The notes beneath the pieces are model-generated. The model had not been told where the DNA came from. It saw nothing but the letters and a program-made list of their open reading frames with translations, and ran no database searches. 64,000 nucleotides of DNA from NCBI GenBank assembly GCA_965240465.1, contig OZ251219.1, positions 1,472,001 through 1,536,000 on the forward strand, given 5' to 3'. The stretch is from a bacterium. Lineage in GTDB: Bacteria > SAR324 > JACQKK01. Positions 3,693 through 31,562 of the stretch are shown in pieces. How positions within the stretch are numbered: position 1 is the first letter of the stretch; each line of letters opens with the position of its first letter. Position numbers and translations under genes: made by a program.

Positions 3693-3817
3693 GAGTATTT
3701 CTTTCATTTATTATAATTTAGCCGAAAAAAAATTGCATTTTTGGCAAAATATTCTTAATAAATTAATTTTTAGTATTCAGTTTTTGCCTCTATAAGAGTG
3801 TTTCACCCTGTTATTAG

Positions 3818-15573: not shown

Positions 15574-15584
15574 ATCAAAGTAAG

Positions 15585-15656
15585 CTCCCCGAGCAAGATT
15601 CGAACTTGCGACCTAGTGGTTAACAGCCACCCGCTCTACCGCTGAGCTATCGGGGA
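15585..15656 (-). tRNA. tRNA-Asn(GTT), CCA not encoded
   Basis: Reverse complement TCCCCGATAGCTCAGCGGTAGAGCGGGTGGCTGTTAACCACTAGGTCGCAAGTTCGAATCTTGCTCGGGGAG folds as a cloverleaf with GTT anticodon. Confidence 0.97.
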
Positions 15657-15816: not shown

Positions 15817-16716
15817 TTAAGGATTATTGCCACTGCTATTATCTTTCCAATGAGCACGCACTGTAAGTACACCCCGGGGTGAATTGACATCCAACGGCTC
15901 GTTGTCCAGACGCAGGTAGCGTGTACTGAGTACGTGAACAGCATCAACATCTCCTTGCTCTATCAGGGATACTAATTCTTGTCCCGTGCTGGATAGAACA
16001 TCTAGTAGCAACACTTTCTCATCTGATTGGACATTAAAAAATGGATGGGGCAAGGCGTTCATGTTCTCATTTTTAATAGCTTGAGTTAATTCTACTTCTT
16101 CCCAGCAATTATCATCACTTAAGACATGGAGGCATGCACGCATTTGATCTGGAGTATTGGCATCAGTAATCTTTGGCTGATTATTTTTCAATCTACGATA
16201 GTAAACAGATCCATTACGAAGGATAGTTTTCTCTGTGTCCAAGCTATTTGCCCATGGCGGATCTTGGGTAGTTGTAGCACTAATTATTTCCCCTTGGCTG
16301 TTTAGACGCAGAAAAATAAACATTGGGATTTCACCATAGCCTAAATCATACGGTGGCGATGATCGCAGATATTTGAATGATACTGCAGCCGGGTTATTAA
16401 TGCTAATTCCTGGAGCATATGTGAGGTGGATAGTAATATGTGCCTGAGTCCGGTTTATTCCATAGCCTCCAAATGATAAATCAGCAAAAGAATTAAATTT
16501 GACTCTTGGCAAAAAATAGTAAGTATTAAATAAAAAAAACCTATTATTTGTATCACTAAAATGGTTAATTGAACTTCCTATATTTATACCTCTCGGTTTT
16601 ATTTTTGGGGCTCCATATTCACCCATAGCTACAGCAGAAAAATTATCGTAGAGTTGATTCATTTTTGATGCAGTTAGTACATCTCCAATGTTGAAATCAA
16701 GATTAGACCATACCAT
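15817..16716 (-). CDS. putative tail fibre/receptor-binding protein (start ATG 16716, GGAG RBS)
   Basis: N-terminus MVWSNLDFNIGDVLTASKMNQLYDN resembles phage fibre anchors; last gene of the tail module. Confidence 0.55.
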   Translation of the reverse strand: MVWSNLDFNIGDVLTASKMNQLYDNFSAVAMGEYGAPKIKPRGINIGSSINHFSDTNNRFFLFNTYYFLPRVKFNSFADLSFGGYGINRTQAHITIHLTYAPGISINNPAAVSFKYLRSSPPYDLGYGEIPMFIFLRLNSQGEIISATTTQDPPWANSLDTEKTILRNGSVYYRRLKNNQPKITDANTPDQMRACLHVLSDDNCWEEVELTQAIKNENMNALPHPFFNVQSDEKVLLLDVLSSTGQELVSLIEQGDVDAVHVLSTRYLRLDNEPLDVNSPRGVLTVRAHWKDNSSGNNP

Positions 16717-16787
16717 ATAATTCTCCAAATTTATGATTAACAAAAAGCTAACGCTTATTAAATATATCAATTAGTATAAAAAATTAA

Positions 16788-17981
16788 TTACACTAATAAA
16801 AATCTTTGATCATCTAGTTGTCCACGTACAGGATGATCTAATTTTAATCCAAGTTGCTCTTGCATTGTATTGAGCAAGCTAATTTTAATGGAACATTTCT
16901 GCATATCAATTTCTTGAGACATAACCCGCCAAGGTATATCTAGATCTACCCCAAAATTTTCTCTTTGCTCCATAGTAATTATTTCTCCCGGTTTGCAAAG
17001 AATGGCAGCCAAAGTACTATCTACAGTTATTTTAGTAGAAGGTTCCTCAAGCGTATACAGAGTACTCCTAGCAGTATAGTTAGCATCGGTATGAGAGATA
17101 TGCCATATATTATTGCTCTTTAGTATCAATTTACGTTCACCAAAACGATTAATTGATTCATCATTTCGTGCTTCAGCTACAGTACTCCAAGTACGATTTT
17201 GAGTAGAATAATCTGCATGTACAAAAATACTATTTTTTACACTCTTAGGAGAAGTTTGTACCTGTATATTTGAAATGTACTTAGAAATAAGAGTGTGGTG
17301 AGTAGTAGGACGGGAAGTTATTTGAGAAAAACTAATCCTGCCATCTTCAATATAAATTGCAGAGCGTGCTATATCTGCTAATTGGCGTAAAGCATATCCC
17401 AATTTTGTATCCTTAAAATATGCTTTCATGCGAATATTATTCTCTCTCCAGATTGTTTCCCAATTGGAAAAAGAATTATAATTTATATCTGGATTATTGT
17501 TATTCTTTAAAGAAGAAAGTCCTCCATAGCTGGTAAGTAATAACCATGCTAATTCTGAGGGTAAGTATCTTGACCCGGTTAGATCAAGAGGTTGTTCATT
17601 TCCTAATAATACTTCTGTTACTTTGCTGATATTATCCTGTGCTTGCAGGAGAATATAGTTTTCCAAGATGGATGCTTGTTCCAAACGCCCTTGGAATAAA
17701 GTGATATATTGATATCCTGTGATTCTGTGTACCCATCCTAAGCGGATTTTACATACAGTAAGTAAAGCCTCATTGCTGGCTAATTTTTCTGCCAGAGCGT
17801 TTTTATAGGCAAGTTTAATGGATATAGTGACTGGACGCAGATTGTTCCATTCACGATTGACACGCGGCCATTGTTGTACTAGATGAGATATGTCTTCATT
17901 ATCAAGTATTAATTGCCTTTTTGGACGTGATAATGACGCCCTCATTTGTTGCCTAAACCATGAAGAAACCGAGTAAGACAT
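16788..17981 (-). CDS. putative tail tip/baseplate hub protein
   Basis: Position after the Dit-like gene; 397 aa; SINRFGER and C-terminal LKLDHPVRGQLD motifs resemble tail-tip proteins. Confidence 0.55.
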   Translation of the reverse strand: MSYSVSSWFRQQMRASLSRPKRQLILDNEDISHLVQQWPRVNREWNNLRPVTISIKLAYKNALAEKLASNEALLTVCKIRLGWVHRITGYQYITLFQGRLEQASILENYILLQAQDNISKVTEVLLGNEQPLDLTGSRYLPSELAWLLLTSYGGLSSLKNNNNPDINYNSFSNWETIWRENNIRMKAYFKDTKLGYALRQLADIARSAIYIEDGRISFSQITSRPTTHHTLISKYISNIQVQTSPKSVKNSIFVHADYSTQNRTWSTVAEARNDESINRFGERKLILKSNNIWHISHTDANYTARSTLYTLEEPSTKITVDSTLAAILCKPGEIITMEQRENFGVDLDIPWRVMSQEIDMQKCSIKISLLNTMQEQLGLKLDHPVRGQLDDQRFLLV

Positions 17982-18017
17982 AAGCTATTCCGTACATAAA
18001 ATATTTTGGGACTGAAA

Positions 18018-18398
18018 CTAGGGTATAATTTGGTAAGATTCTAGTTCTATTTTGCCTCGATAGCGGTTTGCATAAGGGAGAACATGTTGTCCCAATGGTA
18101 TCCTGCGATTGACCAAGATAACCTGATAAAGAGGTGTTGCAGTACCGTCTTCCCAGAATAAGGGGGTATTGTTTTGCCACCATCTGTTGATGAGTTCTGC
18201 TTCTTCGGTTTCCATGTGGCTGACGGAGAATCGCCAGCGTAGCCATTTACCAAAATTGTAGCGGAACATGTTACCAGCTTGTGTTCGGATGCTGGATTCA
18301 ATTTTTTGATGATCTCGGATGTAGTTGTATTCGGGATGCAGAGCTACGTTTGTTGACGAGTTTGCAAAGAGCAAGTATTTGCGAGAGTTATCGGTCAT
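18018..18398 (-). CDS. putative distal tail (Dit-like) protein
   Basis: 126 aa directly after the tape measure gene; RTQAG...Y pattern; mainly synteny. Confidence 0.5.
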   Translation of the reverse strand: MTDNSRKYLLFANSSTNVALHPEYNYIRDHQKIESSIRTQAGNMFRYNFGKWLRWRFSVSHMETEEAELINRWWQNNTPLFWEDGTATPLYQVILVNRRIPLGQHVLPYANRYRGKIELESYQIIP

Positions 18399-18423
18399 AT
18401 TTGATTAGGGGATTAGGAGTGTA

Positions 18424-19446
18424 TCAAGTTTCGGTGGCAAATTTTGGATAGACACCACTTTCATAAAGAGAATCCATGGCACCGTAGATTCTAACGGCCA
18501 ATAATTCCCTAAGGTCTCGTTCGTCCATACGCAGTAGGGAATCTATGTGGGTAGCGTTTTCCAAGATATGTACCTCCATTTGCTGAACTACGATGTTGCC
18601 TTGGGAGGAATCTTGCTTGTCTATAAATTGGGTTAAATCTTTATTTTGTGAAGGGGATAGTATTCGTTCGCCTTTATCTAAGAGATAGGTTTGCTCTTTT
18701 GGGACAAAAGAAAGACCACCATGTGCGGCTGGGGGATTTTGCTTAGCAATAGAACTCGCAAGAGCCAATCCGCTAGCTAGCTCAGCAGCTGCTACTACTG
18801 GTCCTAATGGCCAAGGAATCTCAGCTGCAGCTTTAGAAGCACGCAAATATGCAGCAATAAGGGATTGCCCAGATGCAATAGCCTTATAAGCTTGGAATCC
18901 CCGGATACCTTGACTTTTAGATATTGTTGCTAAGCGTCCTAATCCATCGGAAACCGATTGCAAGCGTGCCAGATTCTCAGATCTTTGCAGTGCAGTGAGG
19001 CTTTTTTCATGTTCGGAGTGTAGCTGCTGTAATTGATTATTATGCTGCTTAGTGCGGTTGATCTCGTAAGATTGGGATTTAGAAACATTGGCTTCTTTTT
19101 GCAGATCATGTTCGCTTTGTTGTTGGATAATTTGCTCATTTTCTAAGGCTTTTGCTTCAAGGTACTGCTTAGATTGGTTTCGTTCCAAATCGTTGCGGTG
19201 ATTAAGGTAATCGGCACGTTGTGCGAGTGAAGCTTCGTCATTAGCAGATTGGCGCGCCTGGGTATGAGCCTGATTATTGGCACTTTCTTGGGTAACGCGG
19301 TTTGTTTCTTTAGTTGATTGGCTTATTATCCGATTACTTTCCTGTATGTCATTGGCACTAGTAAGTGAACGTTTGCCCATGCGTTCTACAGTAGCAGAAA
19401 AGGCATCGCGAGCTTCAATAACAAAGGATATTTTTTGTTCGGGCAT
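18424..19446 (-). CDS. short tail tape measure protein
   Basis: N-terminal FVIEARDAFS, Q/E/A-rich helical middle, C-terminal AHGGLSFVPKEQTYLLDKGERILS; follows the chaperone pair. Confidence 0.75.
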   Translation of the reverse strand: MPEQKISFVIEARDAFSATVERMGKRSLTSANDIQESNRIISQSTKETNRVTQESANNQAHTQARQSANDEASLAQRADYLNHRNDLERNQSKQYLEAKALENEQIIQQQSEHDLQKEANVSKSQSYEINRTKQHNNQLQQLHSEHEKSLTALQRSENLARLQSVSDGLGRLATISKSQGIRGFQAYKAIASGQSLIAAYLRASKAAAEIPWPLGPVVAAAELASGLALASSIAKQNPPAAHGGLSFVPKEQTYLLDKGERILSPSQNKDLTQFIDKQDSSQGNIVVQQMEVHILENATHIDSLLRMDERDLRELLAVRIYGAMDSLYESGVYPKFATET

Positions 19447-19496
19447 GGTACGTAAAAAATAAATGGCAATAGATTGAAAGCAATAAGGATAAAATG

Positions 19497-19742
19497 TTAA
19501 TGAGAAGAAGATGCTTGTATGCGATACATTTCACTGGTTATCCATTCAAAGATTTCCACTACATGATGAGGTTGTTCGGCATAACATCTACCGTCGGGCC
19601 AGGCTGTTTGCATCCACCCACCTTGCAGATATGCGTGGCAATTTTTCCAAGCATCCCACCATGTGTAAATAGATAACCCGGCAACTGTAAGAGGCGCCAT
19701 CAATCGCATGCCTTCGGCAATACGGTGGATGGCGCGGCGGAC
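19497..19742 (-). CDS. tail assembly chaperone C-terminal extension (gpGT-like), reached by -1 frameshift
   Basis: Open -1 frame from the slippery site: VRRAIHRIAEGMRLMAPL...WPDGRCYAEQPHHVVEIFEW. Confidence 0.7.
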   Translation of the reverse strand, partial: VRRAIHRIAEGMRLMAPLTVAGLSIYTWWDAWKNCHAYLQGGWMQTAWPDGRCYAEQPHHVVEIFEWITSEMYRIQASSSH

Positions 19743-19762
19743 TTTTTTTCGCTGGGTTCCTC
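19694..19762 (-). promoter_or_regulatory. programmed -1 ribosomal frameshift signal
   Basis: GAGG upstream; A_AAA_AAG at 19748-19742; 6-nt spacer; stem GCGCCATC/GATGGCGC (19735-19728 with 19701-19694). Confidence 0.8.
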
Positions 19763-20095
19763 TTCCTGCAGTTGTCCACCGCGAATCAAAGTAGCTAACA
19801 AGGCATCTACTAGAGGACTAAAATACTGATGTTCTAAGACATCCTCTAAACTGGCTGACACGCCTTTAATCTTAAATCCAGAAAATGAAGTAATATAATC
19901 AGGGAGTATCTGTACCCCTATTTCTTGTAACCGTAGATTTTGCTCCCAAGCATTACTGGGAGAATTTTCTTCTGTAGGATGTAAATAGGGAAGCAGACTA
20001 AGCATATCTTTGCGTTTCAATGCCCGCATACTACCAGTGATAGTATGTCCATCAAATAATATACTGAATTCAAACTGTGGTAAAAATTCTTTCAT
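19700..20095 (-). CDS. tail assembly chaperone (gpG-like)
   Basis: 131 aa between tail tube and tape measure genes, with in-frame A AAA AAG near its end. Confidence 0.7.
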   Translation of the reverse strand: MKEFLPQFEFSILFDGHTITGSMRALKRKDMLSLLPYLHPTEENSPSNAWEQNLRLQEIGVQILPDYITSFSGFKIKGVSASLEDVLEHQYFSPLVDALLATLIRGGQLQEEEPSEKKSAAPSTVLPKACD

Positions 20096-20104
20096 GATAA
20101 ATTC

Positions 20105-21082
20105 TTATGTAGTGTAGGGAGCATGAGTGTTAACCAAGGTAATATTTATGGAATTTCCATTAGCTTGACGAATTGCTTTTGCTGAGAATTCAGTTTCTAA
20201 GGGACCAGGACCGCTTATTGTAGGCTTTAGTTCAACATATTGAATTTCTGGTAATGATATTTGTACAGATTCTTTAACATCACCTGATAGTGTCACACCA
20301 CTTTCAAATTCTAGGCTAAAAGAACGTCTTTCTTGATTAAGAAAAGCTACATATTCTCTATCATTATCAAATCGTGCACTACCTTGCAGGCTTATAGTTC
20401 TAAAGCCGCTTCTTTGTATCCGTGAAGGATACTTACCTCCATCTAGTGTATGTAATACCTCTAGGTTTTCATCTAATTGAATACTAAGTTGAGTGAAATC
20501 ACCATATAAGTCATTATTGATATTACACTTAGCCTGTTGCCAGCTTAGTGGCTTATCATAATTATAAGTAACACTCACAGGATTAGTGTCTTTGAAGCGT
20601 CCTCCCAGCATTCCTAATTTCAATTTAAGGAATTCTCCATTAGCGACACTTAGCTCTAGTGAAGATGCTACCATATCGTAAAATACCCTAGCTTTACTGT
20701 CGCCATGGAAGTGCTTGTATATGGCAAGCGGATGGTTAACGAATTTGCTGTTATGGTCCTGATTTTTGGGGGAAAACAGGTGAACGTAGTAATTGTTGCT
20801 TGATCTTACAGAATAAGAATTTCCTAAAACAGATTGAAATAATAATCCTACGGCTAAAGGTGAGGCTTCTACTGACAGCTCCCCACTGATGGTAATAGGT
20901 CCAGAATGAAGATTTCCTTCATCAAATACACCGTGCATATTTTGCTCTACCAAGGGTGGTTGTTCTACCGATACTGATTCTGATAGTAGTGGTAACCATT
21001 GCAAGGTAGGCATTCTAAATTGATTTGTACTTGTAGCAGACTGAAAGCCTATCGCCAACGAAGCATTTTGTCCGTACTTCAT
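20105..21082 (-). CDS. phage major tail tube protein (non-contractile)
   Basis: 325 aa; LLSESVS, ISGELSVE, GFRTISLQG, ISGPGPL patterns; AGGAG RBS; no sheath gene nearby. Confidence 0.75.
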   Translation of the reverse strand: MKYGQNASLAIGFQSATSTNQFRMPTLQWLPLLSESVSVEQPPLVEQNMHGVFDEGNLHSGPITISGELSVEASPLAVGLLFQSVLGNSYSVRSSNNYYVHLFSPKNQDHNSKFVNHPLAIYKHFHGDSKARVFYDMVASSLELSVANGEFLKLKLGMLGGRFKDTNPVSVTYNYDKPLSWQQAKCNINNDLYGDFTQLSIQLDENLEVLHTLDGGKYPSRIQRSGFRTISLQGSARFDNDREYVAFLNQERRSFSLEFESGVTLSGDVKESVQISLPEIQYVELKPTISGPGPLETEFSAKAIRQANGNSINITLVNTHAPYTT

Positions 21083-21172
21083 AATATCTCCTGTAAGGTT
21101 GTGAAAAAAATAACAAGTAAGGTAATAAATATCAGTAATGAAAATAGTAATATAATTGTAATAAGATGGTAT

Positions 21173-21637
21173 TTAACAAGGGATAGTTTGTAGAGCAATT
21201 TCATTGGTGAACAACCACGTATCGGCGTTAATATCCCTTTGAAACGGGGATATCTCCATTTCTTCCATGGCTAGTAACACGCCGCTAAGCAGAAGATTAC
21301 TGTAAAGAGCACTTAGTAGCAGATTTTGGATTTTATATAGGCGTTTGCTTGCATCTTGAGAACTTTTATGGCTAGAATCTTGAAGGTAGAGTAGCATTTC
21401 TAGTTGTGATTGCCATAATTTTGAACCCCCTAAGGTATGGGGTTTCAATTGCAATCTACCCGGATAGATTCCTAGCCAGGGTGTTAAGCTGATATCACGA
21501 TTGATGGGTTCAGCATGCTGTATTGTTAATCCTGCTTTGGTAAGTGCACTATCCTGAGAAAGCTGGGTTACTATAGCCTGAGCTATTTCTTCTACTGGTA
21601 CGTAATTTGTTTGACTGCTAGGGGATTGTTGTTTCAT
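21173..21637 (-). CDS. putative tail terminator/completion protein
   Basis: 154 aa before the tail tube gene, PWLGIY motif; synteny. Confidence 0.55.
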   Translation of the reverse strand: MKQQSPSSQTNYVPVEEIAQAIVTQLSQDSALTKAGLTIQHAEPINRDISLTPWLGIYPGRLQLKPHTLGGSKLWQSQLEMLLYLQDSSHKSSQDASKRLYKIQNLLLSALYSNLLLSGVLLAMEEMEISPFQRDINADTWLFTNEIALQTIPC

Positions 21638-21678
21638 ATTATTGTGACTATTTTTTAGGAATAGTGAGGAAACTTATG

Positions 21679-22119
21679 CTATGGAATGTATTTTGGAATG
21701 AAAGGCAATTTGGATAATCTGTCCTTAAGATTTTGCTTAAGCAATGTTTCAGCCTGGGGAAGCTCTGGGAACAGGGGCCTTTTGGGGACTCCCTGTCCTA
21801 GATGATGAAGCACCGCATATGCTGCAGTGTTGGTTGCTTTAATATCTTTTGAAGACTGGAGTAACTTAAAACTATTTCTTAATTTACCTGTGTTAACTAG
21901 CAATGGACGGGTGTTACGCTTTTTTGAACTACTGCTTCGGGGAATCCAGCTGCCACTTTGCAGTAACCTTCCTTGCCCATCAAAGTTTTTTTTAGTCCAA
22001 GCAATCATGGTTTTTCCTAATTCTTGGTGGGTCTGTTTTATCCAACTTGCAGATGCTTGAGGATTACTCCACTGACGTCCCAATTGCTCTAAGGCTTTAT
22101 GTGCATTATTTTGTGGCAT
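21679..22119 (-). CDS. phage virion morphogenesis protein (Mu gpG/P2 gpS-like)
   Basis: KNFDGQG...W..., LLVNTGKLRNSF, TNTAAYAVLHHLG, VPKRPLFP. Confidence 0.8.
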   Translation of the reverse strand: MPQNNAHKALEQLGRQWSNPQASASWIKQTHQELGKTMIAWTKKNFDGQGRLLQSGSWIPRSSSSKKRNTRPLLVNTGKLRNSFKLLQSSKDIKATNTAAYAVLHHLGQGVPKRPLFPELPQAETLLKQNLKDRLSKLPFIPKYIP

Positions 22120-22162
22120 GGCAGTATATAAGTAGTAAAAATTACTGACGGCGGTTATTTTG

Positions 22163-22546
22163 CTAATCAGGAACAAAGGTGTTTTTTATATTACGGGTAC
22201 TGCTCCAAACTTGCTGTCCAGGAGAATTTACCCAGAGCAGTTCTCCGTTATCTAACACCATGGCCTGATTACCCTGGGAGATCTCTTTAATTCTATTTTG
22301 AATCTCTTTTTGGAACGGCAGCATAATTGTTTCATCTTTGCTACGCTGGAGGATGAGCAGATAGGCAAGATCAATAGTAAGGTCGCGAGCGGTTAAATTG
22401 TTTTGTCCTAAGGGAACGGAAACCCAAGGGGCAAGCATAGCTTCTAGCCTTAAAGAGGCATAGAGCAGATAGTGGTTAGTAAGTTCTTCATCACTGATAC
22501 GAGTGATGTAGCGTTCTTTGAATTGTGAAACAGTTGCATAAACCAT
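22163..22546 (-). CDS. head-tail adaptor (Mu gp36/DUF1320-like)
   Basis: MVYATVSQFKERY, VSVPL, DLAYL, IKEISQG; directly after the capsid gene. Confidence 0.7.
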   Translation of the reverse strand: MVYATVSQFKERYITRISDEELTNHYLLYASLRLEAMLAPWVSVPLGQNNLTARDLTIDLAYLLILQRSKDETIMLPFQKEIQNRIKEISQGNQAMVLDNGELLWVNSPGQQVWSSTRNIKNTFVPD

Positions 22547-22604
22547 GGCTAATAATTGGTAAAAGTTTGATAAATAATGAAGATTGTTTTCTAAGAGTAA
22601 GGGA

Positions 22605-22680
22605 GGGAGGCAATCGAGAAACACACACTAGGGCTTTTTTCTGCCAGGGGCCTCGGCAGGTTGGCCAAGGATTACCTCCC
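22605..22680 (-). other. intergenic stem-loop structure downstream of the capsid gene
   Basis: Outer 11-bp stem GGGAGGTAATC/GATTGCCTCCC enclosing inner CTGCC...GGCAG stem. Confidence 0.5.
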
Positions 22681-22693
22681 TATATTTGCAAGC

Positions 22694-23647
22694 TTAGGAT
22701 TTAACGTTTCTGACCAAATATCCAAGAGATTTGGCTGTAATCGCCTCTGCTTGGTAGTATCCGATCTCCACTTCATGACAATGTCTCCGAGTATCATAGG
22801 GGTGGCGAACAACCTGCATGTTAGGGATGTCAGACGCCGCCCAACGGAAGAAATAGCCAAATGAAGGAGTCTCCATAGAAGCTGCATCTGGTGCATAGTA
22901 GACCAAAACATTGCTTCCCCATATTTGTTGTAGGTTGATATCTAGGCCTTCCTCAGCACTATTTCTCCATGCATTTCCAACATGTATCTTGCACTCCAAT
23001 AGTTCTTCTATTTGAGATGAACTTGGGTAGAGACCTCCTCCAGATACAATGGAATTGTTAGCACGATCACTCACTGTTCTATGGCGACGGAACAATTGCC
23101 AAGCTTGTCCAGAAAACAGAACCCGATTGGGACGGTAACCAGTAGAAGATTCTACGCTGTCTATAGCAGCTAAGATATCGTTAAGAGGTTTAGCACCGGT
23201 GGCGTTCCATTTGTTGGTAGGGGTAGAATTACCTCCCACATTATCAGTGTTGGAAATAAGTTTGGCAAGGCGGACTTCCCAATCCAACAAGATAGAATCT
23301 TGCACGCGCATTATGCGTCCCTCTTCAAATTGTTGAATAAACACCGGATCGGCATTGATACGGTCTTCTAGGGTCACATCTACCTTAAGGGCATAATTGC
23401 TACAAAAGAATCCAGATTTAGAAATACGAGAGTGGATCTTATTAGCTTCGGTGCCACGAGAACGACTAGTGTCTTCGTGTCGGAATAAATCGGCTTGTTC
23501 AAATACCACATAGTTATCGGACTGTTTGGGGACCTGTACCACGGGGAATACTTGGTCAGCAATGAAGCCCATAGGGCGATAATTAAGAACAACATTAGAA
23601 AGGTGCTGGTCTACATGTAGAATGCGACCTTGCATGTATTCGCTCAT
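22694..23647 (-). CDS. major capsid protein
   Basis: HVDQHLSNVVLNY...FIADQVFPVVQV, TGYRPN, IWG, PSFGY; strong AAGGAG RBS; position after protease and cement genes. Confidence 0.85.
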   Translation of the reverse strand: MSEYMQGRILHVDQHLSNVVLNYRPMGFIADQVFPVVQVPKQSDNYVVFEQADLFRHEDTSRSRGTEANKIHSRISKSGFFCSNYALKVDVTLEDRINADPVFIQQFEEGRIMRVQDSILLDWEVRLAKLISNTDNVGGNSTPTNKWNATGAKPLNDILAAIDSVESSTGYRPNRVLFSGQAWQLFRRHRTVSDRANNSIVSGGGLYPSSSQIEELLECKIHVGNAWRNSAEEGLDINLQQIWGSNVLVYYAPDAASMETPSFGYFFRWAASDIPNMQVVRHPYDTRRHCHEVEIGYYQAEAITAKSLGYLVRNVKS

Positions 23648-23710
23648 GTTAAACTCCTTGGGGAACTGTTGATTATAAAAGTTGGGTTGACAAAGATTAT
23701 GTGACTAGAA

Positions 23711-24088
23711 TTAGGCCTTCTTCACTGGCGTTGCGAAATTGAATACTCCTGTGCCGACAGCACCCGAAGATACGTGGGTTCCTAAACAGCGTCCTATAAT
23801 ATAGGAATCTGTAGTAGCAGATACAAAATATCCAAGACTGTTAACAGTCAACAGAGTACCTGATGTAACACTGTTACCAGCGGAGAATTTCATTACCCCA
23901 GCATAGCCAAGGGTTACAAATTCTCCTGTTTTTCCTCCGTATTGCAGAATGCCAAGAGCAGTTTCGCCTGTACTGGCAGTACTACCACTTACCGTGATTG
24001 CTTTGAATAGATCACCAGAGGCTGTCAGATCATTGAGATCTTCTCCGGCCTTGATTGTAAGGTTGGAATAATTTCCTTGAATGGCCAT
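23711..24088 (-). CDS. capsid decoration/cement protein (DUF2190-like)
   Basis: 125 aa, Gly/Ala/Thr-rich (AGEDL, GILQ, AGNSVTSG, IIGRCL), between protease and capsid genes. Confidence 0.7.
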   Translation of the reverse strand: MAIQGNYSNLTIKAGEDLNDLTASGDLFKAITVSGSTASTGETALGILQYGGKTGEFVTLGYAGVMKFSAGNSVTSGTLLTVNSLGYFVSATTDSYIIGRCLGTHVSSGAVGTGVFNFATPVKKA

Positions 24089-24103
24089 GGGGGGAACTCC
24101 TAA

Positions 24104-24610
24104 TTATTGAGGTTGAATGGTAAAGCTACGGTAGGCCTCAGACAGCTGCGGATGAGAACGCAAGACATGTTGTGCGGCTTGACTATAGCTGATGTTTAAT
24201 TCGTGCATTTTTCCTTCTGCAAGTGCTGCCAGTTGCTGAGCAGGTGTTGTTGCAGTATCCGATGAGGGCGGTCTCATAGAGGAAGCAGCTTCTTCTTGAG
24301 GAAGCACAGGGTTTGACTGTTGAATGAATTCCATTAACCAATTCAAGGAAATTTGAAGAGGTTTGCCTTCAGCAAAGTATCGTGCTTGGCAATTAATTTC
24401 GTTCATAAGAGAATCACGCAAAGTGGGACTTAATTTTCCTGATTTTACTTGAGTGTCACAGCTTCTTTTTGCACTTTGGATGGCAAGGGATAATGCCTTT
24501 GCCTGGCGCATTTTATGAGATTCGCGAAGATGTTCTTCTTGTTGCAGCTTATAGACACGCAGTTCGGAAAGTTCAGTCTGTTCTTCACTGTTGAGCATGG
24601 TGGAGGGCAT
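24104..24610 (-). CDS. nested in-frame scaffolding protein (168 aa)
   Basis: AAGGAG-aaaaat-ATG inside the protease gene, in frame (MPSTMLNSEE...). Confidence 0.55.
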   Translation of the reverse strand: MPSTMLNSEEQTELSELRVYKLQQEEHLRESHKMRQAKALSLAIQSAKRSCDTQVKSGKLSPTLRDSLMNEINCQARYFAEGKPLQISLNWLMEFIQQSNPVLPQEEAASSMRPPSSDTATTPAQQLAALAEGKMHELNISYSQAAQHVLRSHPQLSEAYRSFTIQPQ

Positions 24611-25261
24611 ATTTTTCTCCTTCCGCTTTAAGGTTAAAGAAGAGGTTGATGAATGAGATGCCTGCTGAGGAATGAATTCTTTTACATTCTCCAGAGGCAA
24701 GATGAATACCCGCGAATTGCGAGCACAAAAACCTGAAGGCCAATCTGCCGTCAGGAAAATTGATAAATCTTTCAAGTTAGTCACAGCAGGCAAGTCAGCA
24801 CCTAGCAAGGCTACGGCCTTCAGTGTTTTGCCTATTTTTCTACCCTTATATTCAGCCTCAAAGTAAATTTCTGCAGAAACCCTTCGCCAGCGACCTTCAG
24901 TAATAGCTTTTCGTACTACGGCAGGAACTTGAAGAAAGGTTGCTATTAATTTATCCCCCTCTACCCGCAATGCACTAACCCAACCCAAGGCTGGGTCGCC
25001 ATCGCTTTGCCCCAATAATGTTTGATCTTCATCATGACCAAATTTTAATGGAGGTTTTATTTCATTCTTTAGTAATTCAAAATTATGAGCAATCTCTTCC
25101 AAATCTTCTCGGCTGAAATACTCTCCATTCCATTTTCCTACACTCATAATTTCTGCTTCTAGAGAAGATCTACCTTCGGCATCTTTGTTTGGGATCTGGG
25201 AAACGGGACCTTTGTCATAAGGTAGCATTTCTTGTTCTTGGCGGAGACTCTGCATGTTCAT
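24104..25261 (-). CDS. prohead protease-scaffold protein (Mu gpI-like)
   Basis: GKWNG, PPLKFGH, PALGWV, WRRVSAEI, AVALLGADLPAVTNL; coiled C-terminal scaffold ending ISYSQAA. Confidence 0.8.
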   Translation of the reverse strand: MNMQSLRQEQEMLPYDKGPVSQIPNKDAEGRSSLEAEIMSVGKWNGEYFSREDLEEIAHNFELLKNEIKPPLKFGHDEDQTLLGQSDGDPALGWVSALRVEGDKLIATFLQVPAVVRKAITEGRWRRVSAEIYFEAEYKGRKIGKTLKAVALLGADLPAVTNLKDLSIFLTADWPSGFCARNSRVFILPLENVKEFIPQQASHSSTSSLTLKRKEKNMPSTMLNSEEQTELSELRVYKLQQEEHLRESHKMRQAKALSLAIQSAKRSCDTQVKSGKLSPTLRDSLMNEINCQARYFAEGKPLQISLNWLMEFIQQSNPVLPQEEAASSMRPPSSDTATTPAQQLAALAEGKMHELNISYSQAAQHVLRSHPQLSEAYRSFTIQPQ

Positions 25262-25349
25262 TTATCCTTGTATTTAGGTTAGCTATGGTAGAAAACTTTT
25301 TGCGTTGGTGAATTTTAATAGGATGTTAAATGATTTTTATTTGATGTTT

Positions 25350-26801
25350 CTATACCATTGATGGATGGGGTTTTATGCCATTAGCACGGTTGTTTGGGGT
25401 ATCTGGATCAGGCCTTAGCTGTCCATTGGCACGGACTCCACTCTGCTGATTTGGAGGGTACGTACCGTTAGTTGATAAAGGGAATCCCAACAATTCACGG
25501 ATGCGAGATTCGTCTTCGGTAGAGGGGGTAACCAGACCACTAGTGACAGCATCCTTCCATCTGGCAACTGTATCTTGTCGTTGCTGCTCAGTTAGAGGAG
25601 CAAAAGAGAAGCGTGGGTATTCTACTAGTCCAAAATTCCACCATGATAGCTCGCGAAATAGCTGTTCATTGAGGACATCTGCGACTGACTCTGCAATGCC
25701 ATTAAGCACAAAGAAGAATGTTTCTAGTTGGATACGGCTCTGACTATATCCTCCTGTTTGTCCTTGTTCTGAAAATCCTAACAAGTTTGGCACTAGCAAA
25801 GCTTTAGCGATGGCCTTATCTCGTGCTGCGATGGCACGCTCAAAAGCATCTGTGGAAGGGGCATTAATCATTTCTAGCTCTACATTGGCGGGAGTAATAA
25901 TGGAGGTACGCCCACTTAGGTTTTGCATTGCTTGTTTGAGAGATTCCCTATCTTGAGAACTAATGGCACCAGATATACGCCCATGAACAAAACCAGATGC
26001 CATTCTCTCTAGGTAGATATTCCAGAATTTAAATATGTTTTCTTTAGCCCACCAATGGCGATAGCATTCGCGAAGATCAGACTCCCCGTATTGCAAGTTT
26101 TCTTCTGGCTTATTCACATGATGAATAAATCGCCTTAGTGGTAGCTGGACTTCTTTTACGCCTTGTTGCTGTATCAGTTTGGTAGTGTTACCGTATTTAT
26201 CTACTTCAAAGCGAAAGGTTTCTGCGGGGCGAAGCTTTAAGGAACGTAGGCTCCAACGATACTGCCCTTGCCAAATAACGGATTGGAATGTTTTTTCGAG
26301 CAAGCTAAAGCCAAATACATGACTGGTAAGTATGTCTCCCATGGCTTGATGGAAAGATCCACACAGATGTTTTTCCATCATTGTATGAAAGAAATCAGCA
26401 GCTATTTTTTGTTCATCTGTATTGGTCTCAAATCGCCACGAACGCGAGGTGATTACCGCTTGTTTTAATCCGAGTAAGGCACGGATCTGATCATCTTTCA
26501 TTACTCTGCGATATATTCCAGATCCCCAGCCTTCGCCCATTTCTGGATGCCAAGATACGCTTGGTTGTTGTTGAAAGAATGACCTTTCAGCCCATGCTAT
26601 TTCTTTGCTGTGAGAAGTCCATGGTTTAGTGCTACGCCGTGTATCTGCATGGAGGCGAATTTCATCGGATTGCATCCCGGTTGATGTACTTGGATTATGG
26701 GAAGAAGTTTGGTCATCCACGCTATGCTTGGCAGCTGTTGATTTGCCTAGCAAGCGATGAATGATACTCTGTCTGGGTCTTTTATAAGCTTTGGTAGGCA
26801 T
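25350..26801 (-). CDS. portal protein (Mu gp29/DUF935-like)
   Basis: FGFSLLE, YGESDLRECY..WWAK, W..YLER, IAKALL, GGYSQSR, LNEQL...NFG...YPRF. Confidence 0.85.
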   Translation of the reverse strand: MPTKAYKRPRQSIIHRLLGKSTAAKHSVDDQTSSHNPSTSTGMQSDEIRLHADTRRSTKPWTSHSKEIAWAERSFFQQQPSVSWHPEMGEGWGSGIYRRVMKDDQIRALLGLKQAVITSRSWRFETNTDEQKIAADFFHTMMEKHLCGSFHQAMGDILTSHVFGFSLLEKTFQSVIWQGQYRWSLRSLKLRPAETFRFEVDKYGNTTKLIQQQGVKEVQLPLRRFIHHVNKPEENLQYGESDLRECYRHWWAKENIFKFWNIYLERMASGFVHGRISGAISSQDRESLKQAMQNLSGRTSIITPANVELEMINAPSTDAFERAIAARDKAIAKALLVPNLLGFSEQGQTGGYSQSRIQLETFFFVLNGIAESVADVLNEQLFRELSWWNFGLVEYPRFSFAPLTEQQRQDTVARWKDAVTSGLVTPSTEDESRIRELLGFPLSTNGTYPPNQQSGVRANGQLRPDPDTPNNRANGIKPHPSMV

Positions 26802-28077
26802 GTTCGCTTTCAGAGTGAGGGTTTCCTAAAATAAATTCTCTTCTGGTTTCATTTATTCCCCAGCAGCAGAGAGCCAAAGCCATGACGCAATCGTCATGCT
26901 GACCTTGAGGTGCACTGGTGCGGATGAAACCCGAAGGTAGGCGATAATGTTCATAAGCAGCTAATTCGTTCATGGTTTCTCGGTGATAAGCCAAGCTCAG
27001 CATTCCTTGCTCCATACAAAGAGCCAAGAGTTCCACCAATTGCTGCTTGCGAGAGTGAGTGAATACCACTGGATAAGCTTCTGCTCCCATACGGTTCATT
27101 TCTTCACAGATGGGGTCACCACTGCCGCTGGCATCCACATAGAGCGGTGCATAGTTAAAACGACGAGATAATGCCAGCAATCTTTCTAATTGACCCCGCC
27201 ATGGAATTCGATGAAAACGCTCACAGTACACGGTACTACGAGTATCAACACAACCTACCCATGCAACGGTGAAATCACCCCAACGGGCTAGATCTACTCC
27301 CAGTATGTAGGAGTGTCCAACTTTAGGAGCAGCATCCATTTTTACAAGTTGTATATCGTTAAGAGATTGGAAAACCTTCTGATTTTCATTAGCAAATTCA
27401 GCCATAATCTCTTGTTGATAGACTGCCCTAGGCATCTGTTTCTGTAGACCTTCTAGCTCTTTTTTGCTGAGTAATGGATTGATATGAGAAGGATGCCTAA
27501 AACTTGCCCAGTCTTGCTGCTGAGTATCTTGTCCCCAATCAAACATACGCCTGAAAAGACCATCTCCTTTGGGAGCCCCAATGCAAAAAAATCGGGCATG
27601 AGGACTTTCTATAAGCATAGGTAGCAAGGTGTGGTAATAAATGGATTCATCACGCAAAACCAGTCCTGCTTCATTTATCCAGATGTAGTCATAAGCAAAC
27701 CCTTCCAACATTTCAGGGCGTTCTGCCGAACCGAAATCACACCATGAACCGCTTTCAAAATTTAGGACATGGTCGCTTGCATCCCATTTCCACTCTGAAC
27801 CCTTAAGGCAGGGACTAAAATAACGAGCTATCAACTTGTGGATATTTCTATAACTAGTATCTATCCACAAATGACAACTCCGAGGATGTAAGTGTGCCAA
27901 TTCTACCAGTCTTGTTATCGCACCATGAGTACCACCCGCCCGACGCCCTTTTACATAGACTATGTTTCTTGTCGGACAATCAAACACCTCAAGTTGATGA
28001 GGCAAATAAGACAATGTTATGGCTTTTTCTTTTGTGTAATCAGCGTGACAGGGGAGCATTTTAATATGTCTCTTCAA
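26782..28077 (-). CDS. terminase large subunit
   Basis: LPHQ, KGRRAGGT, LEGFAYDYIWINEAG, GAPKG, INPLL, YQQEIMAEF, GVDLA, VDASG, HDDCVMALAL. Confidence 0.92.
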   Translation of the reverse strand: MKRHIKMLPCHADYTKEKAITLSYLPHQLEVFDCPTRNIVYVKGRRAGGTHGAITRLVELAHLHPRSCHLWIDTSYRNIHKLIARYFSPCLKGSEWKWDASDHVLNFESGSWCDFGSAERPEMLEGFAYDYIWINEAGLVLRDESIYYHTLLPMLIESPHARFFCIGAPKGDGLFRRMFDWGQDTQQQDWASFRHPSHINPLLSKKELEGLQKQMPRAVYQQEIMAEFANENQKVFQSLNDIQLVKMDAAPKVGHSYILGVDLARWGDFTVAWVGCVDTRSTVYCERFHRIPWRGQLERLLALSRRFNYAPLYVDASGSGDPICEEMNRMGAEAYPVVFTHSRKQQLVELLALCMEQGMLSLAYHRETMNELAAYEHYRLPSGFIRTSAPQGQHDDCVMALALCCWGINETRREFILGNPHSESEHAYQSL

Positions 28078-28244
28078 TGAATATTCTTAGTTCATCAGCT
28101 CAGTGATAAACACTCCGTAATAATACGAAGGTCATAAAAAGCCCCATTAGTATGCTCAGGCATACAAAGCTTGTCGCTAAATGCAATAATCTACTGAGAG
28201 CTACTCAGTAAGATGTTTTTATTAGTGTGTGTTGGATTATCTTT

Positions 28245-28273
28245 ATGCTAAGGCATTAGAAATACTTTTTCAA
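28245..28273 (-). promoter_or_regulatory. candidate sigma70-type promoter for the head-tail cluster
   Basis: TTGAAA (28273-28268), 17-nt spacer, TAGCAT (28250-28245); palindromes at 28192-28210 and 28150-28165 lie downstream. Confidence 0.4.
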
Positions 28274-28405
28274 GTAAAAAATGTAATTCTACGAAAAAAT
28301 AATTGGGGAATACCAAAAAGACAAAGCCATCCTCCCTTAACCTTGAAAAGGTAGCTTATGTGTTCTGCTTTCATCAGAGGATGAAGGTAAATTGATTACG
28401 GCAGA

Positions 28406-28741
28406 TTAGCCGGTAATTCTTTCTAGTAAGGGAGATATATTTCCCTGCAAGATAAAGGCGATAACCAGTCCGTAAATAACCAGAGATTCAATCAATGCCA
28501 AACCAATGATCATAGGAGTAAAGATGCGACCAGAAGCATTTGGATTGCGTGCAATACCTTCTAGGGCTGCCGAAACAGCCTTGCCTTGTCCCAACGCACC
28601 ACCCAAAGCAGCGATACCTATTGCTAATCCTGATGCCAAGGAAAGTCCTAATACAGAAATCTCGCCGTCTGCAACCGCATAAACTGGAGAAGCTCCCATT
28701 ACGAATAAGGTAGAAAACAGAGTAAGTGATTTTTTATTCAT
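28406..28741 (-). CDS. atpE: ATP synthase F0 subunit c
   Basis: [22 protein letters not shown]. Confidence 0.96.
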
Positions 28742-28833
28742 TGCGTCTCTCTAAAAATAAGCCTCTCTAAAAAACAGAATTCGCTCCCTGCTGAGGAGTC
28801 TACAAAATAAACTGATAATAACCAATAAAAAAT

Positions 28834-29544
28834 TTAATGCGGAGCATCTTGTGCATCCTGAATGTATACCGCAGCAAGCAGTACAAATACTACCGCCTGT
28901 AGTACAGATACCAGTACTCCCAAAGCCATGAAGGGTACTGGTAATCCTACTGCCAATAAGGAACTAAAAACAGTCAACACTTGGTGGTCGCCAGTCATGT
29001 TTCCAAACAAACGCATTGAAAGCGACAGAGGCCTTACTAAGTGACTGATGATTTCAATGGGTATCATCAAAGGTGCCAACAATAGCAATGGCCCCATGAA
29101 TTTTTTGCCGTAGCCCCATCCGTGTGTTTTAAGTCCTATTGTGTGTGCAGTAAAAAATATCATTAGTGCTAAGGGAAGGGTGACATTGTACTGGTCTGTA
29201 GGAGCCGCGAAGCCCGGCACCAATCCCAACAGATTGTTGCATAGAATAAACAACATGAATCCTGCCAGTAAAGGAAATACCGAGCGTACTCCTTGATGAA
29301 TAATACCCTGAAAAAAACCAGACATCCTAACCACGATGAATTCTCCTAAGAAAGCAAAATTCACCTTTCCTTGAGGAGCAGTCACCTCTTGCTTACGAAA
29401 ACTTCTACCTACCAAGAAAGCAAAAACCACTAGCACAACCGAAGCTACCAGAGCATCCACTGCTGGATGAGGATCTATGCCATAACGTGCTAGCAAGTGT
29501 TCTAGTGGTTCAAAGAGAAAATTACGCCAAGAAATTTCGTGCAT
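28834..29544 (-). CDS. atpB: ATP synthase F0 subunit a
   Basis: NLLGLVPG, RPLSLSMRLFGNM, LQAVVF. Confidence 0.96.
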   Translation of the reverse strand: MHEISWRNFLFEPLEHLLARYGIDPHPAVDALVASVVLVVFAFLVGRSFRKQEVTAPQGKVNFAFLGEFIVVRMSGFFQGIIHQGVRSVFPLLAGFMLFILCNNLLGLVPGFAAPTDQYNVTLPLALMIFFTAHTIGLKTHGWGYGKKFMGPLLLLAPLMIPIEIISHLVRPLSLSMRLFGNMTGDHQVLTVFSSLLAVGLPVPFMALGVLVSVLQAVVFVLLAAVYIQDAQDAPH

Positions 29545-29597
29545 TTTGTATAAGCTTAGATGATTAAATTCATACTTTATGAGTTCATAGCCAGCAT

Positions 29598-29972
29598 CTA
29601 CGTATTTTGGATGGTTTTAGCTGCTAAGGTGAGGCAGGCAGGCAGTATGGTAGAAATTCCAATCAATAGACCTAACGGGGATATCTGAAGCACGCGGAGG
29701 CAACCCGCAATGAATATGATGTTGAATCCCAATTTTAATGGATATACCCACCATGGAAAACGCCTAGACCTTTTAAGTAGCGAACGTACTAATTTTTCTG
29801 TCCATACCAAATTGGTAGTTACCAGTCCCACACCTAGCAGAACGGCTAGTACAAAGTCAAACTGACCTCGTATCAAGGGTAGTCCTATGAATAGTACGCC
29901 CCAGCCGATGGTAATCATCAACAAAGGGGAACGGCTGGGAAGGGTAGATTTTCTAACGTTCATCAAGATCAT
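29598..29972 (-). CDS. atpI: ATP synthase subunit I-like membrane protein
   Basis: Four hydrophobic segments, directly upstream of atpB. Confidence 0.65.
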   Translation of the reverse strand: MILMNVRKSTLPSRSPLLMITIGWGVLFIGLPLIRGQFDFVLAVLLGVGLVTTNLVWTEKLVRSLLKRSRRFPWWVYPLKLGFNIIFIAGCLRVLQISPLGLLIGISTILPACLTLAAKTIQNT

Positions 29973-30216
29973 TTGTCTGCTGTACCTTTTTCAAGGTACG
30001 CCAAGCTGAATACATAGCTATTGCCATCCCCAATGCTATTCCGGTTAATAATAACCAGGGAGCAGTATCCCAACGATTATCAAGCTTATTTCCTAACCAT
30101 AGACCTCCCAATACCGCAATCCCCATTTCTAGACCAAGGTTGCTAAGTCGCAACAATTGCAAATATTTCCGGCGGTTTGGTGGTAAAGGATTACTTGTGG
30201 ACACAAACATTCGCAA
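29953..30216 (-). CDS. AtpZ/AtpI family protein
   Basis: LGLEMG...GLWLG..LD..WDTAPW. Confidence 0.85.
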   Translation of the reverse strand: MRMFVSTSNPLPPNRRKYLQLLRLSNLGLEMGIAVLGGLWLGNKLDNRWDTAPWLLLTGIALGMAIAMYSAWRTLKKVQQTNDLDER

Positions 30217-30278: not shown

Positions 30279-31562
30279 TCAGGAAACCATTTCTGTGATG
30301 GTTTCAGTAATTGCCTCCAGAGTGAGTTCCAAGTCTTTATCGGTGTGTGCAGTAGATACAAATAACGCCTCGTATGGTGATGGTGGCAGATAAACACCGT
30401 GCCTTAGCATTCCTTGGAAGAAACGAACATAGAGTTTGGTGTCATAGTTGAGGACATCTTGATAAGATTTTATTGGATGTGCATGGAAAAAGAAGCCGAA
30501 CATGCCTCCAAAATGGGCTGTCTGAATAGGGATGCTTGCTTTTTCACAGGCAGAACGAAGACCATTGAGAAATACTTCACTAATACGACTTAGACGGGAA
30601 TAGGCATCTGCTCCAGACAGGCTTTCTAAAGCAGCGATTCCAGCGGCCATTGCTAAGGGGTTTCCAGACATCGTACCTGCTTGATAAACAGGACCTTCAG
30701 GTGCCAGCATTAACATGATATCTCGGCGACCACCATAAGCACCTACTGGTAGTCCGCCGCCAATTACCTTACCAAAAGTTGCCAAATCAGGACGAACTCC
30801 AAAGTATTCTTGGGCTCCACCTTTGGCAACTCGGAAGCCGCTCATTGTTTCATCAAACAGCAACAAGCAGCCGTGCTTATCGCATAATGACCGCAGTCCC
30901 CTGAGGAAATCTATCTGCGGTGGCACCAAACCCATATTTCCAGGGATAGGCTCTAGTATTACCGCAGCTACCTTGTATGCTTCTAATAAACGCTGAATAG
31001 ATTCTAAGTCATTAAACTCAGCTAAGAGTGTATCATTTGCAGTAGATACAGGTACCCCGACAGAATCTGGTACTCCTAATGTGGCAGAACCAGCTTTTAC
31101 CAGCGTGGCATCCAAACTACCGTGATAACAGCCTGCTAATTTGATAATTTTCTCTCGGGAGGTGAACCCACGTGCCAGTCTTAATGCTCCTTGTACCGCT
31201 TCATTGCCAGAGTTAACGAAACGCACCAATTCCAATGGCGAGTACCAATTTCTCAGCTGCTCCGCCAAGATTGTTTCTAGCTCGGTAGGAGTGGTAGTCC
31301 CCTTGCTAGCAGTATCATTGATTGCTTGCAAAACTTGTGGATGTGCATGTCCAGCAATAATTGCTCCCCAAGAGCAGACATAGTCCACATAACGGTTGCC
31401 ATCCACATCTTCTAGCTGGCTACCCTCACCACGAGAGATAAACAATGGCGAAGACAATCCCACCCCCTTAAATGCTCGGACAGGGCTATTTACTCCGCCC
31501 ACTAGCACCTTATTTGCACGAGAAAAGCACGCATTGGAAACTTCTGCCTTCAGATGATTCAT
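30279..31562 (-). CDS. hemL: glutamate-1-semialdehyde 2,1-aminomutase
   Basis: GGVNSPVRAF, DYVCSWG, GCYHG, FGKVIGGGLPVGAYGG, YQAGTMSGNP. Confidence 0.95.
   Translation of the reverse strand: MNHLKAEVSNACFSRANKVLVGGVNSPVRAFKGVGLSSPLFISRGEGSQLEDVDGNRYVDYVCSWGAIIAGHAHPQVLQAINDTASKGTTTPTELETILAEQLRNWYSPLELVRFVNSGNEAVQGALRLARGFTSREKIIKLAGCYHGSLDATLVKAGSATLGVPDSVGVPVSTANDTLLAEFNDLESIQRLLEAYKVAAVILEPIPGNMGLVPPQIDFLRGLRSLCDKHGCLLLFDETMSGFRVAKGGAQEYFGVRPDLATFGKVIGGGLPVGAYGGRRDIMLMLAPEGPVYQAGTMSGNPLAMAAGIAALESLSGADAYSRLSRISEVFLNGLRSACEKASIPIQTAHFGGMFGFFFHAHPIKSYQDVLNYDTKLYVRFFQGMLRHGVYLPPSPYEALFVSTAHTDKDLELTLEAITETITEMVS

Follow-up and report, generated by a model that had tools for sequence, protein, structure and literature searches.

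A phage-derived head-tail gene cluster fixed beside the atp operon of SAR324-related bacteria is a candidate gene transfer agent

Gene transfer agents (GTAs) have been defined by Kogay et al. 2022 (PMC9662315) as particles derived from tailed phages that package mostly random host DNA and deliver it to cells, with an endogenized genome that often lies over several loci, a head too small for that whole genome, and a mostly vertical co-diversification with the host. Besides the GTA of Rhodobacter capsulatus (RcGTA; Rhodogtaviriformidae), the experimentally known ones are BaGTA, VSH-1, Dd1 and VTA, which a review (PMC11841831) describes as independent domestications of tailed phages that package host DNA; the same review gives it as the field's stated problem that new GTAs are not recognisable by similarity to RcGTA. 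Here we describe a cluster of 15 intact, co-oriented head-tail open reading frames (ORFs) in a 64,000-nucleotide stretch of DNA (the window; C1:1472001-1536000 of G000, a single-contig genome of 1.599 Mb) from a SAR324-related, non-alphaproteobacterial host. The cluster occupies window positions 28077-15817 on the minus strand (12.3 kb, at C1:1487.8-1500.1 kb, with internal gaps of 9-90 bp). Comparison with related genomes gives good support to the reading that these virion genes come from a phage, have stayed at one site since the ancestor of the family and have been vertically inherited under purifying selection, with auxiliary genes dispersed over the chromosome; we lean towards a GTA as the function of the cluster, DNA transfer being predicted from the gene set. 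A first, sequence-only reading of the stretch had listed the same ORFs with the same coordinates and strand and had proposed an independently domesticated GTA-like element outside the alphaproteobacteria; both the list and the lineage hold up, and the proposal gains support from synteny, trees, selection, orphan lysis genes and the lack of a close phage.

By description, RcGTA resembles the cluster in many respects: it is a structure-only operon of similar size among housekeeping genes, vertically inherited, co-diverging with its hosts and under purifying selection, with lysis genes at a separate locus, a short non-contractile tail and parts over several loci. Unlike RcGTA, which is compared here by description only, the cluster has a portal of the Mu type (PF06074) and a lambda-E-like capsid (phrog_1005), with no PF05065 match in G000; it also differs in its SAR324-related host, in having no small terminase gene in the cluster and in its co-occurring large glycosyltransferase. 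Because the portal and capsid types differ, the cluster is, on these profile matches, not a member of the RcGTA family. VSH-1 and BaGTA share with it a divided or dispersed gene set, according to the review (PMC11841831). BaGTA, VSH-1, Dd1 and VTA are likened to the cluster by description rather than by sequence, and direct homology to Dd1 of Desulfovibrio is possible.

We searched for the major capsid protein (MCP) in related genomes. These are nearly all metagenome-assembled genomes (MAGs), the large-genome relatives being environmental MAGs; synteny is physical linkage within contigs and insensitive to binning errors, absences depend on completeness (61-97%), and related genomes are non-independent samples, which holds for all counts of distribution and co-occurrence given here. 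The MCP is present in 12 of the 18 other genomes of the family, 11 of which hold the orthologous type (59-73% identity; one copy in G000) and one (G016) a 45% copy only. The search did not find it in any of the 45 genomes of the sister family f2 or of the 5 genomes of families f3 to f6, and family f7 gave weak matches only, in 3 of 19 genomes; outside f2, only weak matches to the capsid type thus came from 3 of the 24 other genomes of the phylum, which bears on the comparison with Dd1. Thirteen loci were fetched and all window genes mapped on them, ten of these loci including the large terminase gene (TerL). In seven of the ten (the window, G001, G015, G007, G004, G011 and G017) the hemL, atpI, atpB and atpE genes lie directly upstream of TerL, with an atpE-TerL gap of 0.3-2.1 kb and six genera spanned, and the G005 and G003 loci end at contig edges. 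At the other end, the same aspartate/ornithine carbamoyltransferase gene stands convergent to the tail genes in four of the five loci that reach so far (G001, G007, G009 and G017; about 61% identity between genomes), and in G007 the entire interval from atpE to this gene consists of structural genes. G000 has lost the flanking carbamoyltransferase gene and has only a 28% paralog elsewhere. The sequence-only reading had placed atpE and tRNA-Asn as neighbours, correctly for this genome (PF00137 and ARAGORN matches; atpE, at 28406-28741, is 328 bp upstream of TerL), and had suggested the order atpE-cluster-tRNA-Asn as the one to look for in relatives: the atp flank recurs across at least six genera, but the tRNA-Asn flank is not conserved, and the conserved downstream neighbour is the carbamoyltransferase.

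The phylogenies (quick or single-search settings, 10-21 taxa) are consistent with long residence at this site. In an RpoB tree rooted with five outgroup genomes, the family's deepest split has cluster carriers on either side, and the cluster-less G008 is sister to the window's genus; this distribution argues for one old acquisition followed by later losses. In an MCP tree built with 33 related IMG/VR contigs, the 12 orthologs group together in a single clade apart from the viral sequences (SH-aLRT 92). A tree of TerL, portal, protease and MCP from ten genomes agrees with RpoB on the pairs (G000,G001) and (G004,G017) and on the attachment of G007, and in AU (approximately unbiased) tests host-like groupings were not rejected (p 0.12 and 0.078, for groups named after the tree had been seen). 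The cluster tree thus largely follows the host RpoB tree, and MCP identities (73% to G001, 62-67% to other genera) run close to those of RpoB (77% and 61-69%).

Divergence between G000 and G001 points to strong purifying selection on the cluster. The synonymous distances (NG86) are 1.5-4.9, or non-computable for four of the 15 genes, and dN is 0.17-0.36; the 11 computable genes have dN/dS of 0.06-0.16, ratios that, with dS saturated, are rough upper bounds. The flank genes give 0.10 (hemL) and 0.04 (atpB), the cluster lying in the same range as hemL and the atpI genes, and selection on the head genes and TerL is as strong as on the tail genes. All 15 genes are intact in both genomes despite saturated dS. 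The Walker A (GRRAGGT), Walker B-like (WINE) and nuclease Asp motifs of TerL are invariant in ten orthologs. Blocks of the non-coding region upstream of TerL are likewise kept between G000 and G001, which is notable because synonymous sites are saturated, and suggests that the cluster has a control region of its own, with a putative promoter role; scans of the region for promoters and terminators gave counts near or below shuffled expectation, promoter-like sites standing at chance level.

The hallmarks of a prophage (an integrase with attL/attR, immunity and replication modules next to the virion genes) were not found at this locus. In and beside the cluster we detected no integrase, att repeats, replication genes or lysis genes and no direct repeats bracketing it, and no integrase, att repeats or replication genes were found at any fully bounded locus examined; the earlier claim that the cluster lacks integrase, replication and lysis genes and a small terminase is accurate for G000. 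The genome as a whole has only two PF00589 recombinase matches (C1:309 kb and C1:1446 kb), neither of them within 40 kb of the cluster, one strong TerL match (phrog_2 search) and no HK97-type capsid (PF05065 search); its only S24 repressor lies 195 kb away. The tRNA-Asn was considered as an att site and rejected: its 3' end faces away, there is no repeat at the other end, and it is not conserved, no tRNA standing beside the G001 cluster. A close free-phage counterpart was not found among 50,697 phage records or in IMG/VR. The best isolate matches in those records are 28% for the MCP and 26% for the portal; Roseobacter phage RDJL Phi 1 and Pseudomonas phage JD18 have the same capsid family, with an MCP only 27-28% identical. 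IMG/VR holds 33 contigs whose MCP is 37-50% identical, with lengths of 37-45 kb for some, which share the capsid, portal and protease families on contigs 3-4 times the size of the cluster; none of the 33 carries this TerL type, and the nearest viral TerL in IMG/VR is 36% identical. The cluster is therefore not near-identical to a complete phage of these collections (MCP at most 50%, TerL at most 36%).

Functions missing from the cluster have candidates elsewhere in the chromosome. A lysis cassette at C1:611.7-612.9 kb, about 880 kb from the cluster, lies among housekeeping genes between prfB/tenA and a parA-like gene and encodes an M15_3 endolysin (169 amino acids, aa), a three-transmembrane holin of family PF11351 (133 aa, scoring 31.5 bits where the cut-off is 24.8) and, as a spanin-like candidate, a membrane/coiled-coil protein of 98 aa. 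It is an orphan, no other phage structural genes having been detected in G000 outside the cluster, and the same cassette is present in G001 (62-69% identity). Three larger-genome relatives (G005, G009 and G011) carry an M15 endolysin inside the cluster, which is missing from the G000 and G001 clusters; the sequence-only reading, which saw neither endolysin nor small terminase, is thus right for G000 but does not extend to larger-genome relatives, in which the cluster also carries a possible small terminase. Six loci (L010, L014, L015, L018, L019 and L021) have a 4.3 kb insert between the capsid and adaptor genes that encodes a GT4-methyltransferase-GT2 protein of about 1000 aa and a glycosyltransferase of about 350 aa, and these in-cluster enzymes suggest glycosylation of the particle. 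G000 has a homolog of 816 aa (GT4+GT2; 43-46% identical) at C1:1291.0-1293.4 kb, about 195 kb from the cluster. Such a homolog occurs in five of five cluster genomes without an in-cluster copy, and there was no strong match in four cluster-less genomes of the family or in one sister-family genome. We infer that the lysis and glycosyltransferase loci serve the cluster. Of the further signs of domestication that the sequence-only reading had named, a host-like tree, purifying selection and orphan holin and endolysin genes were all found, and an orphan small terminase is represented by a weak candidate only, described below.

The glycosyltransferase of G000 belongs to a three-gene module (C1:1290998-1294852; L038:7999-11852) in which an HTH_31+Peptidase_S24 repressor is divergent to a 120 aa Cys-rich ORF (p120) that is followed by the glycosyltransferase; the arrangement is common to G000, G001, G004 and G007. 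G000 has no other S24 protein, and the cluster-less G008 has a homolog of the repressor without the two neighbours; the repressor is therefore probably the host's LexA-like regulator, and SOS control of the p120-glycosyltransferase operon is a lead only. No operator common to the upstream region of TerL, the repressor/p120 intergenic region and the upstream region of the endolysin was found.

These parts fit together in a proposed sequence of events. The gene types and flanks indicate that, in the family's ancestor, a tailed phage entered between atpIBE and the carbamoyltransferase gene, and that its portal was of the Mu type, its capsid lambda-E-like and its tail non-contractile. The 15-gene operon would be transcribed from its own conserved upstream region, and the portal, protease-scaffold, capsid protein and small head protein would build a procapsid that TerL, with its ATPase and nuclease motifs intact, would fill with DNA by headful. 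Because there is no small terminase gene in the cluster, packaging might start without a specific pac site or via a homolog that has diverged and moved elsewhere, and the heads would take up host DNA. Neck proteins, tube, G/GT chaperones, the 340 aa tape measure (for a tail of about 50 nm), the gp27-like hub and the fibre would complete the particle, the large glycosyltransferase may modify it, and the M15 endolysin, three-transmembrane holin and spanin-like protein would release it. Since the parts lie hundreds of kilobases apart, no single particle could carry the whole system.

Several observations weigh against this account. The site is empty in three genomes of the family (G008, G002 and G012), where the atp operon is followed by unrelated housekeeping genes, and the system is therefore dispensable. 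The G009 cluster has Mrr, tRNA-Gly and PAP2 genes upstream in place of the atp operon, and G009 is the only genome placed differently in the concatenated cluster tree and the RpoB tree. A second, non-syntenic MCP copy of G007 is sister to the clade of 12 orthologs, so that exchange with active phages is possible on the tree. Related capsid genes sit on viral contigs of 37-45 kb, from which the head might hold more than the 12.3 kb cluster, and holins of the PF11351 family occur in ordinary lytic phages too (in a search listing), so the family name is no evidence. The larger-genome relatives have a conserved small ORF with a core of about 90 aa directly upstream of TerL, possibly, by its position only, a small terminase; it is absent from the G000 and G001 clusters, and no small-terminase-sized ORF fits in the 328 bp atpE-TerL gap of G000. 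This ORF had no Pfam, PHROG or PDB-sequence match, its AlphaFold2 (AF2) model (pLDDT 70.7; a pair resembling a helix-turn-helix, HTH, plus one long helix) had no PDB match at E<=0.001, and its ESM Atlas neighbours are mostly viral hypothetical proteins. A relocated homolog may be the 317 aa protein encoded next to scpA at C1:1328719-1329672 (L043:6720-7673), with an ortholog at the same place in G001, but the profile match is weak (E 0.0014), hhalign gives a probability of 83% (E 9e-6) over 78 columns, and it scored only 0.75 in the ESM Atlas. With the upstream ORF absent here and the relocated homolog weakly supported, the particles might not package DNA at all.

Some of these points would also be expected if the cluster were a functionless remnant of a defective prophage, or belonged to a family of temperate phages with recurrent integration at this one site: decay commonly leaves head-tail clusters that have no lysogeny genes, the site is empty in three genomes, and the G009 copy has other neighbours. 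A remnant without selection would have decayed, yet with dS saturated the 15 ORFs, the frameshift signal of the chaperones and the catalytic motifs are intact; the fully bounded loci lack mobility and replication genes, both flanks are common across genera, the tree follows the host and no similar free phage was found, which together make this explanation very improbable. PBSX of Bacillus is a chromosomally fixed, non-replicating producer of DNA-containing particles with a lysis cassette, and the cluster could encode a defective-phage 'killer particle' of that kind, selected for killing related cells or competing with them, in which case any host DNA in the heads would be incidental and not productively delivered. 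The evidence for domestication is identical for such a particle and does not tell killing apart from transfer; evolution is fastest at the receptor-binding end (hub and fibre), which has lower GC, as expected under arms races with target cells, and the LexA-like HTH+S24 repressor adjoins the co-occurring p120-glycosyltransferase operon, an arrangement reminiscent of SOS-induced bacteriocin particles. Killing alone, however, needs no head, portal or terminase, which known tailocins do without, and here selection on the TerL motifs, the portal and all other head genes matches that on the tail genes, which speaks for DNA-filled particles rather than a tailocin. No immunity or killing determinant was identified. 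In PBSX a single block of about 28 kb contains the regulators and lysis genes, and its particles kill and do not transfer, whereas the parts of the present system are dispersed. We consider a killing function unlikely, although it is the main rival to a GTA. Still less probable, in our estimate, is a particle exapted otherwise, for example for interaction with a eukaryotic host or for delivery of cargo other than random DNA, a use that has been proposed for endosymbiont GTA remnants. All 15 genes are kept in a genus with genomes of 1.6-1.7 Mb, against 2.3-5.2 Mb elsewhere in the family. George et al. 2022 (PMC9254644) argue that gene transfer does not readily account for GTA genes persisting in small, clonal populations of symbionts, and report that reduced endosymbiont genomes retain GTA genes under purifying selection. 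On the other hand, nothing examined shows this bacterium to be a symbiont, the same cluster is kept in large-genome environmental relatives, so that its function predates genome reduction, and the tail genes are complete here, unlike those of endosymbiont GTA remnants.

To return to the GTA reading, three genomic features of the definition are found here: phage-derived proteins, an endogenized multi-locus genome and co-diversification with the host. The broader proposal, a new and independently domesticated GTA lineage forming a new viriform family, the first in the SAR324-related phylum, with dispersed lysis, glycosyltransferase and possibly small-terminase functions and with particle glycosylation as an integral, co-inherited part, seems to us to have about an even chance of being right. 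Among titles of SAR324 literature on gene transfer agents or prophage capsids none describes such an element; a PICI-like (phage-inducible chromosomal island) element is mentioned in the SAR324 literature, not a GTA. Only a handful of GTA lineages are known, and the cluster is a candidate for experiment as well as a template for finding others by a fixed site, host-congruent trees, intact genes at saturated dS and dispersed lysis genes. It also bears on why reduced genomes retain costly systems and on whether glycosyltransferases are a regular part of domesticated particles.

The features of the cluster and its flanks are collected in Table 1; protein roles were assigned by Pfam and PHROG profile searches unless another basis is given.

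Table 1. Head-tail cluster and flanking features, in window coordinates
Feature	Position	Strand	Basis and remarks
Large terminase TerL, 431 aa	26782..28077	-	phrog_2, 2e-31; 75% identity to G001 ortholog
Portal, Mu gp29 type, 483 aa	25350..26801	-	PF06074 Portal_Mu 6.8e-56; phrog_113 6e-65
Head maturation protease, 385 aa	24104..25261	-	phrog_976 1.3e-37 over full length; no Pfam match
Small head protein (decoration or scaffold), 125 aa	23711..24088	-	phrog_673 'head scaffolding protein' 9e-11
Major capsid protein (MCP), 317 aa	22694..23647	-	phrog_1005 7e-59; PF03864 Phage_cap_E weak, 4.8e-6
Head-tail adaptor candidate, 153 aa	22163..22624	-	Position only; kept in 9 relatives
gpG-like / Neck1 tail-completion protein, 165 aa	21679..22176	-	phrog_26 1.4e-10; PF05069 Phage_tail_S 3.8e-5
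Tail terminator candidate, 154 aa	21173..21637	-	Position only; kept in 8 relatives
Tail tube protein, 325 aa	20105..21082	-	PF18906 Phage_tube_2 1.3e-20; phrog_290 2.8e-28
Tail assembly chaperone pair	19497..20095 (G 19700-20095, T 19497-19709)	-	-1 slippery site A_AAA_AAG at 19748-19742
Tape measure, 340 aa	18424..19446	-	phrog_13674 2e-16 and 5 other tape-measure PHROGs
Small tail-tip protein at distal tail protein ('Dit') position, 126 aa	18018..18398	-	Position only
Tail hub, gp27/VgrG-like fold, 397 aa	16788..17981	-	AF2 model, pLDDT 62.4
Tail fibre / receptor-binding candidate, 317 aa	15817..16770	-	Position only
atpI-like, atpI2, atpB, atpE upstream flank	28406..30216	-	Pfam; hemL further upstream at 30279-31562
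tRNA-Asn downstream flank	15584..15656	-	ARAGORN; 160 bp from cluster
Upstream non-coding region	28078..28405	.	Blocks kept between G000 and G001; promoter-like TTGAAA-17-TAGCAT at 28273-28245 (minus strand)

The roles given by the sequence-only reading stand for TerL, portal, protease, capsid, gpG-like protein, tube and tape measure on profiles, for the chaperones on the frameshift and for the hub on its fold; the adaptor, terminator, Dit-position and fibre proteins have no Pfam or PHROG family match and keep those names by position only. Its 'cement' protein is indeed a head protein, with a PHROG label of head scaffolding, and a location upstream of the capsid gene that would fit a decoration protein. 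The portal is of the Mu type as claimed, but Pfam does not show the protease to be Mu gpI-like; the protease is probably fused to a scaffold. The gpG-like protein scores 24.0 bits against PF05069, just under the cut-off of 24.3. Searches of PDB sequences with family profiles of the adaptor, terminator, hub, small tip and small head proteins returned nothing significant, the adaptor giving a non-significant hint to 'Gene product J' (E 0.41) and the small head protein no match. The two small ORFs after the tube gene can be taken as confirmed, at the level of conserved sequence, as a G/GT-type chaperone pair, because both the slippery A_AAA_AAG and the -1 frame are conserved: the heptamer is in X_XXY_YYZ register in G000 and G001, about 48 nt ahead of the first stop codon, and downstream of the heptamer the two genomes keep the peptide of the -1 frame at the protein level. 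For the 397 aa protein, a model of modest confidence confirms by its fold a gp27/VgrG/Mu gp44-like hub, Foldseek giving 58 PDB matches at E<=0.001 that include Mu gp44, T4 gp27, the phage 80alpha baseplate and the T5 tail tip. The 126 aa tail-tip protein is kept in G001 (65%) and L018 (35%), and the fibre candidate shares 51% identity over its N-terminal 40 aa or so with the final tail gene of G007, for which there is a weak match to a tail-fibre PHROG.

Hub and fibre are the least conserved genes of the cluster (fibre 53% identical to G001, dN 0.36). The head genes have the GC content of the genome, whereas these two have only 0.35-0.39; at window 16001-18000 it is 0.35, against 0.42-0.45 nearby. 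The low GC and high divergence may reflect exchange or fast evolution of the receptor-binding module. The possibility that the tape measure was shortened in the reduced genus was rejected, since the length is 289-342 aa in every syntenic copy; the non-syntenic G007 copy has 660 aa.

Further variants of these genes were seen in relatives. Besides its atp-linked cluster, G007 has two more capsid copies (59% and 47%) on one 117 kb contig (G007:C1:63000-110500; L018 and L020), accompanied by a phrog_38 terminase, the 660 aa tape measure and an in-cluster glycosyltransferase, and the region may represent a prophage of the ancestral type that is active or was so until recently. Between the tail chaperones and the tape measure, L010, L012, L014, L016 and L017 have a conserved ORF of about 260 aa (29-47% among relatives) that G000, G001 and the non-syntenic copy in G007 lack. 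Two contigs with capsid homologs at 45-47% identity (L034 and L037) were binned to a Bathyarchaeia archaeon (this contig is 3 kb long) and to an Acidiferrobacterales bacterium; prophages, or viral contigs of the same capsid group placed in the wrong bin, are the probable source. The G000 protein encoded at C1:1328719-1329672 contains a long Pro/Ala/Ser/Thr-rich repeat stretch that is missing in its G001 ortholog.

Around the cluster, the order beyond tRNA-Asn is an AlkD-like gene followed by tlyA-like, rseP, dxr and cdsA. The ATP synthase c subunit encoded by atpE is 111 aa long, with a signal-like N-terminal extension before its PF00137 domain (residues 35-98). Elsewhere in the window, on the minus strand, are an ORF of 1538 aa at 5632-10248 and a tmRNA gene at 3817-4194 with the tag peptide AKNSDYTPMALAA.

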